Notes under the pieces: generated by a model
What the model saw: only the letters and a program-made list of their open reading frames with translations
The model's database searches: none
What the model was told of the DNA's origin: nothing
Program-made: the position numbers and the translations under genes
Shown: piece by piece, positions 7,109 to 12,112 of the stretch
How positions within the stretch are numbered: position 1 is the stretch's first letter
How the letters are laid out: every line of letters begins with the position of its first letter
Assembly: GCA_018262775.1 (NCBI GenBank)
Contig: JADFDU010000033.1
Location: 1-32,000, forward strand
Source of the DNA: Rhodocyclaceae bacterium
GTDB lineage: Bacteria; Pseudomonadota; Gammaproteobacteria; Burkholderiales; Rhodocyclaceae
Direction: 5' to 3'
DNA length: 32,000 bases

Positions 7109-7177
7109 GTCATTCCCGCGAAAGCGGGAATTCACAATACGAATCGAAGGCTGGATTCCCGCTTTCGCGGGAATGAC
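7109..7177. repeat. REP-like palindromic element: perfect 23-bp inverted repeat, each arm itself a hairpin
   Basis: gtcattcccgcgaaagcgggaat (7109-7131) is the exact reverse complement of attcccgctttcgcgggaatgac (7155-7177), with a 23-nt spacer. It produces the familiar spurious peptides SFPRKRE / VIPAKAGIQ...FRGND in ORFs 7107..7301 and 6380..7192. Confidence 0.85.
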
Positions 7178-7371: not shown

Positions 7372-8859
7372 ATGATGACCGAAGCCGCATTCAACGCGTT
7401 GGCCGCGCAGGGCTATAACCGTATTCCGGTGACCCTGGAAACCTTCGCCGACCTCGATACCCCCCTTTCGATCTACCTCAAGCTGGCCACTGGTAACAGT
7501 GGCGCCTATACCTACCTGCTCGAGTCCGTGCAAGGTGGCGAGCGCTTCGGCCGCTATTCCTTCATCGGCCTGTCCGCGCCGACGCGCATCGCCGCCTATG
7601 GCCGCGACGTCATGGTGCTCACCGGCCACCGCATCGCCGAGCGGCGCGACGATTGTGATCCGCTCGCCTTCGTCGGCGAGTACATGGCGCGCTTCCGGCT
7701 CGCGCCGCGCGCCGGCCTGCCGCGCTTCTGCGGCGGCCTCGTCGGCTGCTTCGGCTACGACACCGTGCACTACATCGAGCCGAAGCTGGCAAAGACGCAA
7801 AAGCCCGACGCGCTCGGCACGCCCGACGTGCTGCTGCTCCTCTCCGAGGAAATTGCCGTTGTCGACAACCTCTCCGGCAAGCTGACCCTGGTGGTGTATG
7901 CCGAGCCCGGCGTGCCCGGCGCCTTCAAGCGCGCCCAGACGCGGCTGAAGGAACTGCTGGTGCGGCTGCGTGAACCCGTGGCCATTCCCCCCGAACAGCC
8001 CGTTGCGTCGCAGGCGGCTGTCTCTTCATTCGGCGAGGAACCCTTCAAGCAGGCCGTGGCGCGCGCCAAGCAATACATCGTCGACGGCGACATCATGCAG
8101 GTGGTGCTCTCGCAGCGCATGTCGAAACCCTTCGCCGCCACGCCGCTGGCGCTCTACCGCGCGCTGCGCACCCTCAATCCCTCGCCCTACATGTTCTACT
8201 TCGACTTCGAGGACTTCCACGTCGTCGGCGCCTCGCCGGAGATCCTCGTTCGCCTGGAGGACGGCAGCGTCACCCTGCGGCCGATCGCCGGCACGCGTCG
8301 GCGCGGCAAGACGGTCGAGGAAGACGAGGCCCTCGCCGCCGAACTGCTCACCGACGAAAAGGAACGCGCCGAGCACCTCATGCTGCTCGACCTCGGCCGC
8401 AACGACGTCGGCCGCGTGGCGCAGACCGGCAGCGTCAAGGTGACCGAGCAGTTCGTCATCGAGCGCTACTCGCACGTGATGCACATCGTCTCCAGCGTCG
8501 AAGGCAGGCTGAAGCCCGAGCTGGATGCGCTAGCGGTGCTGCGCGCCACCTTCCCCGCCGGCACGGTGTCCGGTGCGCCCAAAGTGCGGGCGATGGAGGT
8601 CATTGACGAGCTGGAGCCGGTCAAGCGCGGCCTCTACGCCGGCGCCGTCGGCTACCTCGGCTTCCACGGCGACATGGACCTCGCCATCGCCATCCGCACC
8701 GCCGTCGTCAAGGACGGCCACATCCACGTCCAAGCCGGCGCCGGCATCGTCGCCGATTCCGACCCGGCCGCGGAATGGCAGGAGACGCAGAGCAAGGCCC
8801 GCGCCCAACTGCGCGCCGCCGAAATGGCCGAGTCGGGCCTCGATACGCGCTTGGATTGA
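7372..8859 (+). CDS. trpE: Anthranilate synthase component I
   Basis: ATG 7372 preceded by GGAG (7366-7369). [28 protein letters not shown], and the C-terminal GAVGYLGF...AIRT...[10 protein letters not shown] chorismate-binding signature. Confidence 0.95.
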
Positions 8860-8860
8860 A

Positions 8861-9331
8861 CCGCATTCAACACAGAGGGCACAGAGGTACAGAGAACACA
8901 GAGATGGAAGACAATGTCCTTTCCGGTCAGGTGATTGGCGCCGCGATTGAAGTGCATCGGGTTCTGGGCCCGGGGCTGCTTGAGTCGGCCTATGAGCTGG
9001 CGCTGGAGCGAGAGCTCCGGCTGCTCGGGCTCGACGTTCTTCGCCAGGTGCCGGTCCCGCTTCAGTACAAAGGTGCGAACCTTGGGGACGGATTTCGCAT
9101 CGACATTCTCGTGAGCGGGTTGCTGCTGGTCGAGATCAAGGCAGTCGAACAGCTTGCGCCTTTGCACGAAGCCCAGCTATTGACCTATTTGCGCTTGACC
9201 GGCAAGCGGCATGGGTTGCTCATCAATTTCAACGTCTCGGCGCTCAAGAACGGGGTCAAACGGGTGGTAAATGGATACTAGATTTTTCTCTGTGATCTCT
9301 GTGCCTCCGTGTCCTCTGTGTTTAAAGAGGT
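8861..9331. mobile_element. CACAGAG-repeat palindromic element, cargo-bearing copy (arms 8861-8903 and 9282-9331 flank the GxxExxY gene)
   Basis: Left arm caaCACAGAGGgCACaGAGGtACAGAGAaCACAGAG. The reverse complement of the right arm is aaaCACAGAGGaCACgGAGGcACAGAGAtCACAGAG. The same arms occur back-to-back at 9910-10022 and 11078-11180. Confidence 0.6.
8904..9281 (+). CDS. GxxExxY family protein (PD-(D/E)xK nuclease fold)
   Basis: 125 aa from ATG 8904. GLLESAY is the GxxExxY motif. FRIDILV...LLLVEIKAV fits D...ExK nuclease catalytic spacing. In-frame TTG 8856 overlapping the trpE stop is an alternative start. Confidence 0.85.
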   Translation: MEDNVLSGQVIGAAIEVHRVLGPGLLESAYELALERELRLLGLDVLRQVPVPLQYKGANLGDGFRIDILVSGLLLVEIKAVEQLAPLHEAQLLTYLRLTGKRHGLLINFNVSALKNGVKRVVNGY

Positions 9332-9338
9332 TCCCCCC

Positions 9339-9902
9339 ATGCTCCTGATGATCGACAACTACGACTCCTTCACCTACAACCTGGTGCAGTATTTCGGCGA
9401 GCTGGATGAGGAGGTGCGCGTCTTCCGCAATGACGAAATTTCGGTTGAGGGCATTGTCGCGCTCAAGCCCGATCGCATCGTCGTCTCCCCCGGTCCCTGT
9501 TCGCCCGCCGAGGCCGGCATCTCGGTGGCGGTGATCCGGGCGTTTGCCGGCAAGGTTCCGTTGCTGGGCGTCTGCCTCGGCCACCAATGCATCGGCGCCG
9601 CTTTCGGCGGCAAGGTCGTGCATGCCCGCCAACTCATGCACGGCAAGACATCATTGGTGCAGCATGCCGGCGCCGGCGTTTTCCGCGACCTGCCGAATCC
9701 CTTCACCGCCACGCGCTACCACTCGCTCGCCATCGAGCGTGCCTCGCTGCCGGATTGCCTTGAAGTGACGGCGTGGACCGACGACGGCGAGATCATGGGC
9801 GTGCGCCATCGCGAATTCGCTGTGGAAGGCGTGCAGTTCCACCCCGAATCCATCCGCAGCGAGCACGGCCACCGACTGTTGAAGACTTTTTTAGAGACAT
9901 GA
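9339..9902 (+). CDS. trpG: Anthranilate synthase component II (glutamine amidotransferase)
   Basis: ATG 9339 ([18 protein letters not shown]). Catalytic GVCLGHQ and FHPES. AAGAGG at 9325-9330 lies inside the repeat arm. Confidence 0.93.
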
Positions 9903-9909
9903 ACCTTGA

Positions 9910-10022
9910 CCTCTTTCAACACAGAGAGCACAGAGGCACAGAGAACACAGAGAGAGAAACGGTTTTATTCAATGTTCTTCTCTGTGCCCTCTGTGTCCCC
10001 GTGTCCTCTGTGTTGAAAGAGG
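9910..10022. repeat. CACAGAG-repeat palindromic element, cargo-less copy (113 bp)
   Basis: cctctttcaaCACAGAGaGCACAGAGGCACAGAGAACACAGAG...loop...CTCTGTGcCCTCTGTGtCCCcGTGTCCTCTGTGttgaaagagg. Begins 8 nt after the trpG stop and ends 25 nt before the trpD ATG. Confidence 0.88.
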
Positions 10023-10047
10023 TTGCTTTTATTAGGGAGTCAAAATC

Positions 10048-11073
10048 ATGATCACCCCACAGGAAGCCCTGCAGCGCACCATCGAACACCGCGAGATCTT
10101 TCATGACGAGATGCTGCATCTCATGCGCCAGATCATGGGCGGCGAGATCACGCCGCTGATGGTCGCCGCCATCCTCACCGGTCTGCGCGTGAAGAAGGAA
10201 ACCATCGGCGAGATTTCTGCTGCCGCCAAAGTGATGCGCGACCTGTGCACTCGCGTCGACACGCCCCACAACCCCCACTTCGTCGATGTCGTCGGCACCG
10301 GCGGCGATGCGTCCCACACCTTCAACATCTCCACCGCCTCGGCTTTCGTCGCCGCCGCAGCGGGCGCCACCGTCGCCAAGCACGGCAACCGCGGCGTCTC
10401 GTCGAAGTCCGGCTCAGCCGACGTGCTGGAGGCGCTCGGCGCGAAGATCGACCTGGCCGCGCCGCAGGTAGCCGAGTGCATCCAGGCCACCGGCATCGGC
10501 TTCATGTTCGCCCCCAACCATCACCCGGCCATGAAGAACGTCGCCCCGGTACGACGCGAAATGGGCGTGCGCACCATCTTCAACATCCTCGGCCCGCTGA
10601 CCAATCCGGCCGGCGCACCGAACACCCTGATGGGCGTGTTTCATCCCGACCTCGTCGGCATCCAGGTGCGCGTCATGCGCGAACTGGGCGCCGACCACGT
10701 CCTGGTGGTGTGGGGCAAGGACGGCATGGACGAGATTTCGCTTGGCGCGGCGACTCTGGTCGGCGAACTCAAGGACGGCAAGATCACCGAGTACGAAATC
10801 CACCCCGAGGACTATGGCCTGCAGATGGTCTCCAACCGTGGCCTGCGCGTCGCCGACGCCACCGAGTCGAAGGAAATGGTGCTGGAGGCGCTCGCCAACA
10901 CGCCCGGCACGCCGCGCGAGATCGTCACCCTGAACGCCGGCGCGGCGCTCTATGCGGCGAACGTCGCCGATTCGGTCGCCGACGGCATCGTTCGCGCGCG
11001 AGAGGCCATCGCCAGCGGCGCGGCGCGCGCCAAGCTCGACGCGTTCGTCAATTACACGCGGCGGTTTACTTGA
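10048..11073 (+). CDS. trpD: Anthranilate phosphoribosyltransferase
   Basis: 341 aa. [17 protein letters not shown] and [21 protein letters not shown] signatures. Confidence 0.95.
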
Positions 11074-11077
11074 GAAA

Positions 11078-11180
11078 CTCTTTCAACACGGAGGGCACAG
11101 AGGCACAGAGGACACAGAGAAGAACTTTCTCTGGATGTTCTCTGTGCTCTCTGTGCCTCTGTGTTCTCTGTGTCAAAAGC
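11078..11180. repeat. CACAGAG-repeat palindromic element, second cargo-less copy (~103 bp)
   Basis: ctctttcaaCACgGAGGGCACAGAGGCACAGAGGACACAGAG...loop...CTCTGTGctCTCTGTGCCTCTGTGttCTCTGTGtcaaaagc. Begins 5 nt after the trpD stop and ends 14 nt before the trpC ATG. Confidence 0.88.
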
Positions 11181-11194
11181 GGTTAAGGCTCCCT

Positions 11195-12112
11195 ATGTCC
11201 GACATCCTGCAGAAAATTCTCGCGGTAAAGCACGAGGAAATCGCCGCCGCGCAGGCAAAAAAGCCGCTCGCCGCCCTGCGCGCCGAGGCCGATGCGCAGT
11301 CGCTGCCGCGCGACTTCGTCGGCGCGATTCGTAAAAAAATCGGCACGAAAGTCAGCCTCGGCAACACGGCGAAATGCGCGGCGGTCATTGCCGAGATCAA
11401 GAAGGCCAGCCCCTCCAAGGGCGTCATCCGCGCCGATTTCCGCCCCGGCGAGATCGCCGCGTCCTATGCGGCCCATGGTGCTACCTGCCTGTCGGTGCTG
11501 ACAGACCGGCAGTTCTTCCAGGGCGCGCCGGAATACCTCGTCGAAGCACGCGCAGCCTGCGCGTTGCCGGTGCTGCGCAAGGATTTCATCATCGACGCCT
11601 ACCAGGTGGTCGAGGCGCGTGCGATGGGGGCTGACTGTATCCTGCTTATCGTCGCGGCCTTCCTCCCCCCTCACCCCAACCCTCTCCCCCGCGGGGGAGA
11701 GGGAGCAACAATCACCCCCTCTCCCCTCGGGGAGAGGGCAGGGGTGAGGGGGGCAGTCGCTCAAATGCGCGAACTCGAAACCCTCGCCCACGAATTCGGC
11801 ATGGCCGTACTGGTCGAGGCGCACGACGACGCCGAACTCGACCTCGCCCTAGCGCTCAAAACCCCGCTCATCGGCATCAACAACCGCAACCTGCGCACCT
11901 TTGCAGTCTCGCTACAGACGACCCTCGATCTGCTGGCACGCATCTCTGCCGATCGCATCGTCGTCACCGAGTCGGGCATCCTGGCGCCTGCCGACGTCAC
12001 CCTCATGCGCGGCCATGGCGTGAATGTCTTCCTCGTCGGCGAGGCCTTCATGCGTGCGCCCGACCCGGGTGCGGAACTGGCTCGGCTGTTCGAACAGGGG
12101 GATTCGTCATGA
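11195..12112 (+). CDS. trpC: Indole-3-glycerol phosphate synthase (carries an in-frame repeat insertion)
   Basis: ATG 11195 ([16 protein letters not shown]). [18 protein letters not shown] and [10 protein letters not shown] motifs. At 305 aa it is about 35-40 aa longer than typical TrpC. Confidence 0.92.
11665..11753. repeat. G/C-rich nested palindromic (REP-like) element embedded in the trpC reading frame
   Basis: Outer inverted repeat cccccctcacccc (11665-11677) / ggggtgagggggg (11741-11753). Two inner hairpins: ccctctcccc-cgcg-ggggagaggg and ccctctcccc-tc-ggggagaggg. Translates in frame as [29 protein letters not shown]. Confidence 0.8.

Follow-up and report, generated by a model that had tools for sequence, protein, structure and literature searches.

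A Hairpin Cassette Family Confined to Operon-Internal Stop-to-Start Junctions Occupies All Three Junctions of trpEGDC in a Rhodocyclaceae Genome

Introduction

The trpEGDC operon of a Rhodocyclaceae bacterium carries a palindromic element in every one of its intercistronic junctions (E/G, G/D and D/C), and the locus raises the question of why such elements should have accumulated in precisely these gaps. An earlier note on this DNA, made from the sequence alone, offered a pair of alternatives: either insertion strongly prefers short gaps after stop codons in transcribed operons, or only such insertions are tolerated. Here, the question is approached through the distribution of the whole element family in the genome, the state of the same junctions in related species, and the occurrence of the family's single cargo gene elsewhere in the phylum.

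The window (the whole 32,000-nt stretch that was analysed) lies on contig C33 of a 3.09-Mb draft genome, labelled G000, of 57 contigs, 63% G+C and 91.8% completeness. Genes were called with a home-made codon-usage ORF finder, which yielded 2822 genes and recovered the trp genes exactly, with start codons that are approximate. The element family was sought over the genome contigs with a profile of its terminal "foot" and repeat units, and a looser search added weaker copies. Twenty genomes of the genus were compared at the trp operon and five at 25 further sites, while 200 genomes were drawn from the phylum, and 29 loci of the cargo gene were fetched from other genomes.

The Copies in the trp Operon

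The junction between trpD (stop codon TGA at 11071–11073) and trpC (ATG at 11195) holds a gene-less palindrome of 110 bases, which begins 1–4 nt past the trpD stop, ends 10 nt short of the trpC ATG, and is the third CACAGAG-unit copy in the operon, as the earlier note had described (Table 1). Its two arms of 47 nt are 81% complementary and enclose a 16-nt loop; the left arm consists of AAACTCTTTCAA followed by the four units CACGGAGG, GCACAGAGG, CACAGAGGA and CACAGAG, and the right arm terminates in TCAAAAGCGGTT. The limits first given for this copy, 11078–11180, cover the unit arrays, but pairing and the family model add 3–4 nt on each side, out to AAACTCTTTCAA and TCAAAAGCGGTT. A substitution quoted at that time as evidence of divergence between the arms of different copies (CACGGAGG at 11087 versus CACAGAGA at 9920) is correct. 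As RNA, the element has a predicted folding energy of −71.9 kcal/mol versus −37 for shuffled sequences (z = −9.2), and the opposite strand folds with nearly the same stability. Within the window, the pattern CACAGAGNNCACAGAG with up to two mismatches occurs 12 times, versus 0.22 expected.

Table 1. Positions, within the window, of the trp genes and of the elements between them
Feature	Position	Strand	Remarks
trpE (anthranilate synthase component I)	7375..8859	+	ORF and tblastn to relatives, 92–95% aa
Cargo-bearing cassette, trpE/trpG junction	8859..9332	+	left arm 8859–8905, GxxExxY ORF 8904–9281, right arm 9286–9332
trpG	9339..9902	+	ORF
Gene-less copy, trpG/trpD junction	9908..10024	.	4+4 units, 27-nt loop
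trpD	10048..11073	+	ORF
Gene-less copy, trpD/trpC junction	11075..11184	.	left arm 11075–11121 (4 units CACGGAG/CACAGAG), loop 11122–11137, right arm 11138–11184
AAGG, Shine-Dalgarno-like tetramer	11185..11188	+	immediately follows the foot of the stem, with the trpC ATG 6 nt further on; read from sequence, putative function
trpC	11195..12112	+	ORF

The three junctions are all filled, as had been claimed. In the copy between trpE and trpG, the first base is also the final A of the trpE stop codon TGA, the right foot contains AAGAGG 8 nt upstream of the trpG ATG, and the loop encodes a 125-codon ORF that matches TIGR04256 ("GxxExxY") with an E-value of 2.6e-41. This is the sole GxxExxY gene in the genome.

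An intrinsic terminator was considered for the trpD/trpC element and rejected: there is no U-tract, GGTTAAGGCTCCC follows the stem, and a terminator scan flags small sub-hairpins only. An Rfam scan at permissive E-values returned only sub-threshold matches to generic hairpins (miRNA precursor), none of them above the gathering score.

The Cassette Family

In the genome, the foot-and-unit profile detects 42 paired elements, along with two arms that stand alone, and the looser search contributes 6 weaker copies, a three-unit subtype among them, for a total of 42–48. Nearly all 42 copies consist of 4+4 units around an A/T-rich loop of 13–48 nt, and the feet are conserved, with (G)AAACCGCTTTCAA at one end and TTGAAAG(C/A)GGTTT(C) at the other. 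Two unit types, CACAGAG and CGCAAAG, are found with common feet, and mosaic copies are present. The full cassette consists of a GxxExxY gene (PD-(D/E)XK fold) between two inverted arrays of four 8–9-nt units, and an arm HMM built from the gene-less copies also matches the arms of the GxxExxY-bearing copy. The features that define such a cassette are accordingly all present: inverted arms made of 7–9-nt unit arrays, a TIGR04256/PF13366 gene in the full form, and gene-less copies with the same arms and feet. The stems of the copies have predicted energies of −47 to −85 kcal/mol; T-runs follow only a few of them, and a U-tract is missing after most.

No signature of transposition was detected for the family. 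No excess of flank identity indicative of a target-site duplication was detected at any offset for k = 2–8, although short duplications could have been erased by age, and longer duplications of the flanks were likewise not found (5.07 for matched versus 5.12 for mismatched flanks, p = 0.6). A duplication of the start region was suspected from ATGA relics upstream of certain copies (C54:98234 and the trpG/trpD copy) and was set aside when the flank tests proved negative; the ATGA relics upstream of several copies are better read as the remains of former gene overlaps. The genome, which is 91.8% complete, yielded no RAYT / Y1 transposase (PF01797) in a search that did give matches in control genomes, nor any other recognisable transposase. 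The partner that has the same ends as the gene-less copies encodes a PD-(D/E)XK-like protein. We know of no function for the cargo family PF13366/TIGR04256. A search of PDB sequences with the cargo returned no relative among solved structures, the literature searched contained GxxExxY and PDDEXK_3 in passing only and no description of the cassette, and an S23p four-helix-bundle cargo was not found in the genome.

Individual copies depart from the standard form. The copy at C5:33564-33731 is lopsided, with 10 units on the left against 4 on the right, which indicates unit expansion by slippage, and the copies at C7:40258, C52:19507 and C54:98234 have in common a 46–48-nt loop with a second small hairpin (CACCCGGTGGGTGAG-like).

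Distribution Relative to Genes

Genome-wide, 38 of the 42 elements are flanked by co-directional genes and one has convergent neighbours; no copy has divergent ones, and in the other three an upstream ORF runs into the element. Divergent spacers account for 24% of intergenic bp (0/42 copies, p = 9e-6), and convergent spacers account for 13% of intergenic bp and 22% of gene ends, where 5.5 or 9 copies, respectively, would be expected versus the one observed (p = 0.02 and 4e-4). The elements are also placed asymmetrically within their spacers: the median stop-to-element distance is 4 nt (≤11 nt in 34/37), the median element-to-start distance is 10 nt, and the stop is nearer than the start in 31/37 copies (p = 4e-5). 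The description of the trp copies as lying just past stop codons therefore extends to the family at large, and even copies in long spacers are stop-proximal. When the element is subtracted, the residual spacer is ≤30 nt in 32/38 of the co-directional copies, with a median of 16 nt. Spacers of this size account for 3.3% of co-directional intergenic bp and ~2% of intergenic bp overall (enrichment p = 1e-45 for the latter); counted as junctions, they are 50% of the co-directional ones (enrichment p = 1.5e-5).

Such a map had been proposed in the earlier note as a check on its reading, with a random spread over intergenic space as the outcome that would count against it. Post-stop junctions prove strongly enriched, with 32/42 copies in ~2% of intergenic bp, and a random spread is rejected both by the empty divergent spacers and by the concentration in tight ones. 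The family is confined to stop-to-start junctions inside operons, where its copies lie right behind the preceding stop and leave ~10 nt to the following start, and the filling of every trpEGDC junction conforms to this genome-wide rule.

The pattern was compared with that of a second palindrome family of the same genome, comprising 51 loci of dRS3-like ATTCCCGCGAAAGCGGGAAT pairs. In this control family, the residual spacer is 104 nt versus 16 nt for the CACAGAG family (p = 5e-12), the stop distance is 26 nt versus 4 nt (p = 2e-8), and 12/51 loci are convergent or divergent versus 1/42 (p = 0.005), a distribution that amounts to an ordinary REP-like spread. Since the control is spread so differently, the junction pattern is specific to the CACAGAG family and not general to palindromes. 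One control-type palindrome, with two inverted ATTCCCGCGAAAGCGGGAAT cores, is also present in the window at 7109–7177, 3 nt past the stop codon of the gene that precedes the trp leader.

The main rival to the mechanism proposed below is a survival filter without any targeting, by which insertion would occur anywhere and the remaining copies would mark the sites where insertion was harmless; tight junctions could moreover act as traps, as an imprecise deletion of the long, unstable palindrome would remove the stop, Shine-Dalgarno sequence or start of a needed gene. We regard this as somewhat unlikely. Convergent spacers should be the safest sites of all under such a filter, yet they hold the single copy noted above, and the dRS3-like palindromes do persist in long and convergent spacers. 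In addition, no decayed remnants outside co-directional junctions were found in the looser genome search, and 32 chance arrivals in a 2% target, often only 0–10 nt wide, would imply very many lost insertions. The filter nevertheless draws strength from the age of the copies and from other evidence given below.

The further statement that elements are never inside coding sequence holds within the trp operon but not throughout the genome, where upstream ORFs enter the element in 3/42 cases and one lolA-like ORF reads through an element in frame. The three (C1:23244-23362, C11:123150-123269 and C44:66005-66105) have an upstream ORF without a stop before the element that enters it for ~20 codons; the empty site corresponding to C1:23244-23362 in genome G012 is a GTGA overlap. 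The lolA-like ORF (C38:7819-8502) keeps its native TGATG start and continues in the same frame across a CGCAAAG-type element of 106 nt (C38:7830-7935), whose CTTTGCG units are translated as ...KRIFALFALFALFALNAVSA, which could plausibly serve as a signal peptide. The same locus in G012 is without the element and encodes an ordinary 16-residue signal peptide (MRLAAILLFALLPVVA). It is possible that the element has here been taken over as coding sequence.

Native Junctions and a Proposed Mechanism

Relatives without the elements reveal what the junctions looked like when empty. Empty trpE/trpG junctions are 7–11 nt long and contain GGAG, empty trpG/trpD junctions are an ATGA overlap or 1 nt, and empty trpD/trpC junctions are an ATGA overlap. 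Over 19 sites at which relatives lack the element, the native junction measures ≤18 nt in 17 cases, and 7 are overlaps, ATGA and GTGA among them; across the order, trpG/trpD and trpD/trpC spacers are mostly −4 to 30 nt. With native junctions this tight or overlapping, the elements sit where translationally coupled genes once touched.

The elements can also contribute signals of translation. The stop codon overlaps or abuts the element foot in 9/37 copies, and no bias in stop-codon identity was seen at the elements. At C56:82058, for example, four relatives have an 8-nt gene overlap (ATGGATAA), and in this genome the upstream stop TAA is made up of a T and the element's first two A's. A modest asymmetry is seen at the other end, where GAGG (giving AAGAGG) occurs at 16/39 start-facing feet versus 6/39 stop-facing feet.

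These observations are consistent with a cassette that rides on operon transcription, enters tight junctions preferentially, and is harmless as a portable intercistronic spacer that restores coupling, a reading to which we assign a probability of roughly one half. The cassette would have no promoter and would depend on transcription of the host operon, and tight operon junctions would be preferred at the insertion step. The A-rich left foot would often complete the stop codon, and the right foot would carry or abut the Shine-Dalgarno sequence of the next gene. The stem would start within the ~10 nt unwound by a terminating ribosome; with its start inside that stretch, the downstream ribosome-binding site would stay hidden unless the upstream gene is being translated, and coupling would thereby be restored. 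On this view, repeated colonisation of a conserved operon with three tight junctions would be expected to end in the state seen at trpEGDC. The occupancy of the same junctions by different unit types in sister species, the constraint on the arms and the clustering of occupied junctions, all given below, likewise speak for this reading. Against this mechanism stand the missing transposition signature, the lack of any sign of selection on the sense-strand hairpin, and the modest size of the Shine-Dalgarno asymmetry. Moreover, elements in long spacers are still stop-proximal, and the coupling idea alone does not explain them.

Age, Turnover and Exchange of Alleles

Copies of the family are at most 87% identical to one another, with a median of 69%, and all 25 non-trp sites checked are either filled in at least one other species or, at one site, represented by a decayed remnant. 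The copies are therefore old. The remnant, which lies in the close relative G018 at C54:98234, is 58 nt long and has the same flanks. None of 114 contig ends contains units, and since no contig end stops in an element, the assembly hides no class of young copies.

Given that all copies are old, the unfiltered spectrum of insertions is unseen, and survival bias could give the same map as targeting. Such a bias gains further from the commonness of the copies to sister species, from the slow in-place erosion to which the G018 remnant testifies, and from the absence of a target-site duplication or other site-specific mark; in relatives, moreover, these junctions can be filled by several unrelated palindromes (BoxC-like, GGAGTGA-unit and GTGAGCG-unit) or by a vapBC-like module. 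The earlier pair of alternatives, insertion preference or selective tolerance, is thus supported as a pair, and the data would accommodate either member.

The three trp copies are 78–80% identical to one another and 82–84% identical to copies on other contigs, which bears out the claim that they are not one recent duplication. That the trp cluster is a chance run of insertions, or arose on the spot through tandem duplication or short-range hopping, could be suggested by the genome-wide count of adjacent occupied junction pairs (5 versus 0.65 expected, p = 5e-4) and by the fact that trp is the only run of three occupied junctions in the genome. The closer kinship of the trp copies to those on other contigs speaks against such a local origin, as does the filling of all three trp junctions by other unit types in two sister species (G014 and G019), and no duplicated sequence is found in the flanks. 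Together with the low pairwise identities and the occupancy of orthologous junctions in sister species, these findings largely refute a local origin, which we consider very improbable, and local tandem duplication, named in the earlier note as a possible cause of the trp clustering, is rejected.

Occupants of a given junction vary between species. The trpD/trpC junction holds a CACAGAG type in G000, G003, G012 and G004, a CGCAAAG type in G014 and G022, a three-unit type with other feet in G019, G001 and G016, and, in G007, a CACCAAG type bearing a GxxExxY gene of its own. Other junctions in some species contain further unit types or BoxC-like palindromes. In a trpD tree, the occupancy states are scattered: the fully occupied G000 is placed as sister (support 95/94) to G018, in which none of the three junctions is filled. 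In trpC, the second codon (Ser2) reads TCC or TCT wherever the allele is filled and AGC wherever it is empty, a correlation that would fit recombinational exchange of entire junction alleles.

Orthologous copies differ at 11% of paired arm positions and at 31% of loop positions, and the arms, evolving about three times slower than the loops, must be constrained or homogenised. Pair-preserving one-sided substitutions are no more frequent than expected, and double changes number 28 versus 12 expected and are not enriched for pairing. Folding is without strand bias as well, with the sense strand more stable in 18 copies and the antisense strand in 20, and G-U counts are unbiased.

Such measurements bear on the conceivable retention of the elements by the host for an RNA function, in which the ~45 bp stem would serve as an RNase III site or a barrier to 3′-exonucleases and junction copies would be positively selected; the trp mRNA, for example, could be cut into separately stable pieces, or the levels of neighbouring cistrons could be set. 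Precedents include the RNase III excision of stems from 23S rRNA intervening sequences (PMC4990558) and palindromic repeats that are co-transcribed with their neighbours (PMC3049150). The great stability of the stems and the slow evolution of the arms would agree with such a role, and the missing U-tract in most copies leads one to expect transcriptional read-through. Against it, there is neither a strand bias in folding energy or G-U pairs nor an excess of pair-preserving substitutions; moreover, close relatives such as G018 manage without elements at all three trp junctions. From what Liang, Rudd and Deutscher reportedly described for REP sequences in Mol Cell in 2015, stable hairpins ≤15 nt from a stop would be expected to lower upstream expression, which also counts against a beneficial role. 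We therefore consider retention for an RNA function to be distinctly unlikely.

GxxExxY Loci beyond the Genus

A GxxExxY gene is present in 31 of the 200 phylum genomes besides this one. Of the 29 fetched genes, 13 occupy precisely the trpD/trpC gap, in the same orientation as both neighbours (L210–L230 range, family f44); these belong to several genera of one distant family, in which TrpD is ~45% identical to TrpD here, and the arms of their cassettes are built from CGCAGAG, CACAGAG and CGCAAAG units. At the remaining loci, a rough ORF-based reading indicates an upstream neighbour that in most cases has the same orientation and terminates at the cassette; one locus is clearly anti-oriented. 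In a GxxExxY protein tree, the E/G cargos of the genus form one clade (99/96), and the D/C cargo of G007 falls outside it, among D/C cargos of other families, with weak support for that placement.

The recurrence of the cassette between trpD and trpC across families, as read from these sequences, suggests site fidelity or site preference, with the proviso that the 13 loci may share descent and hence do not represent 13 independent events. Occupancy of the same junction in a family with so distant a TrpD is also difficult to reconcile with a survival filter alone. A bolder and rather doubtful reading, which would build on this recurrence, is that GxxExxY cassettes are junction-seeking selfish operon elements that spread in a homing-like manner, that nuclease lineages stay faithful to particular junctions such as trpD/trpC across families, that the hairpin is silent to RNA and translation, and that the gene-less hairpins are what remains after loss of the nuclease. 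Silence might be achieved through processing of the stem or through coupling opened by the ribosome. We know of no cleavage activity or recognition site for GxxExxY. If true, GxxExxY cassettes would be the operon counterpart of rRNA intervening sequences and inteins.

Comparison with Known Elements

The closest published parallel is found in the intergenic heptameric arrays of Xanthomonas (GGGAATC) and Nostoc (GGGGAYT) described by Rehm et al. 2015 (PMC4692102). In Xanthomonas, 70–75 loci are paired and inverted; 89–93% of arrays are intergenic, mostly between co-oriented ORFs, with some overlapping a stop codon, and the mean distance is 28 nt to the upstream ORF versus 160 nt to the downstream one (PMC4692102). 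The arrays were read as G-quadruplex formers, the stop-proximal bias was left unexplained, and no link to a gene cassette was made (PMC4692102). Both systems consist of tandem 7-nt units in paired inverted arrays that are stop-proximal between co-oriented ORFs. In contrast to the heptamer arrays, which have neither cargo gene nor conserved feet, the units here are not G-rich, are fixed at four per arm between conserved feet, lie in spacers with a median of 16 nt, and in one case enclose a GxxExxY gene in the loop.

A second parallel involves the ORF-bearing intervening sequences of 23S rRNA, for example in Coxiella burnetii, for which RNase III excision has been shown (PMC4990558). These, too, are small selfish inserts with inverted repeats that form a long stem in a host transcript, with an optional ORF in the loop; they are tolerated since the host RNA works without religation, and we liken the cassette to them in this tolerance. 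All copies here, however, are found between protein genes or at their ends and not in rRNA helices, and the ORF of the intervening sequences encodes an S23p four-helix bundle rather than GxxExxY.

The cassette also resembles MITE/REP-type repeats, such as Correia/NEMIS, ERIC and RUP/BOX, that are co-transcribed with their neighbours (PMC3049150), as well as REPIN-RAYT systems, in being ~100 bp long with terminal inverted repeats, in numbering tens of copies, and in being intergenic and probably transcribed with the flanking genes. Gene-less forms beside a rarer gene-bearing form are likewise typical of MITE/REP-type repeats. The cassette family differs from MITEs in the lack of a detectable target-site duplication, and from REPIN-RAYT systems in the lack of a RAYT in the genome, in arms that are tandem unit arrays, and in its restriction to tight co-directional junctions.

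Finally, the free-standing homing endonuclease genes of T4-like phages, which spread by "intronless homing" (PMC2988022), offer a parallel for the cargo. In both cases, a small gene, for a putative nuclease in the cassette, lies between conserved genes, presence and absence are polymorphic at the same junction, and a flanking marker (here the trpC Ser2 codon) tracks occupancy. The phage genes, unlike the cassette, are without hairpin arms and without many gene-less copies at dozens of loci.

Implications

What this analysis adds is a quantitative genome-wide map, a control family, a reconstruction of native junctions, and the recurrence at trpD/trpC across families. Three filled junctions have thereby become a measured rule for one genome, and the rule gives context for the stop-proximal bias published for heptamer arrays, which, if related to the cassette class, would belong with a gene cassette of PF13366/TIGR04256 cargo. 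The rule also raises the question of why essential cistrons are not silenced by a stem of 45 bp between them. For the question of homing, G000 and G018 constitute a natural pair of filled and empty alleles. There is a warning for annotation as well, as the elements can supply stop codons, ribosome-binding sites and even signal peptides.

Other Inserts at the Same Junctions

Several unrelated inserts were encountered in and around the trp operons of the genus. In G001, G003, G004, G007 and G022 (L004, L005, L007, L010 and L014), the trpG/trpD junction holds a vapBC-like insert of 750–800 nt, in which a palindrome, GGCTATCTA(A/G)ATAGCC, accompanies two small ORFs, of which the second has an end resembling that of a VapC PIN toxin (...NTADF..F.GL..QNWF). 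The trpE/trpG junction of G020 (L018) contains an unrelated 128-nt palindrome (GCGCAATAGCCGC... / ...GCGGCTATTGCGC). Within trpC of the present genome, an in-frame, G/C-rich nested palindrome unrelated to the CACAGAG element lies at 11665–11753 (CCCTCTCCCC...GGGGAGAGGG), and BoxC-like elements that resemble it fill junctions of G018 and G003 at which this genome has CACAGAG elements.
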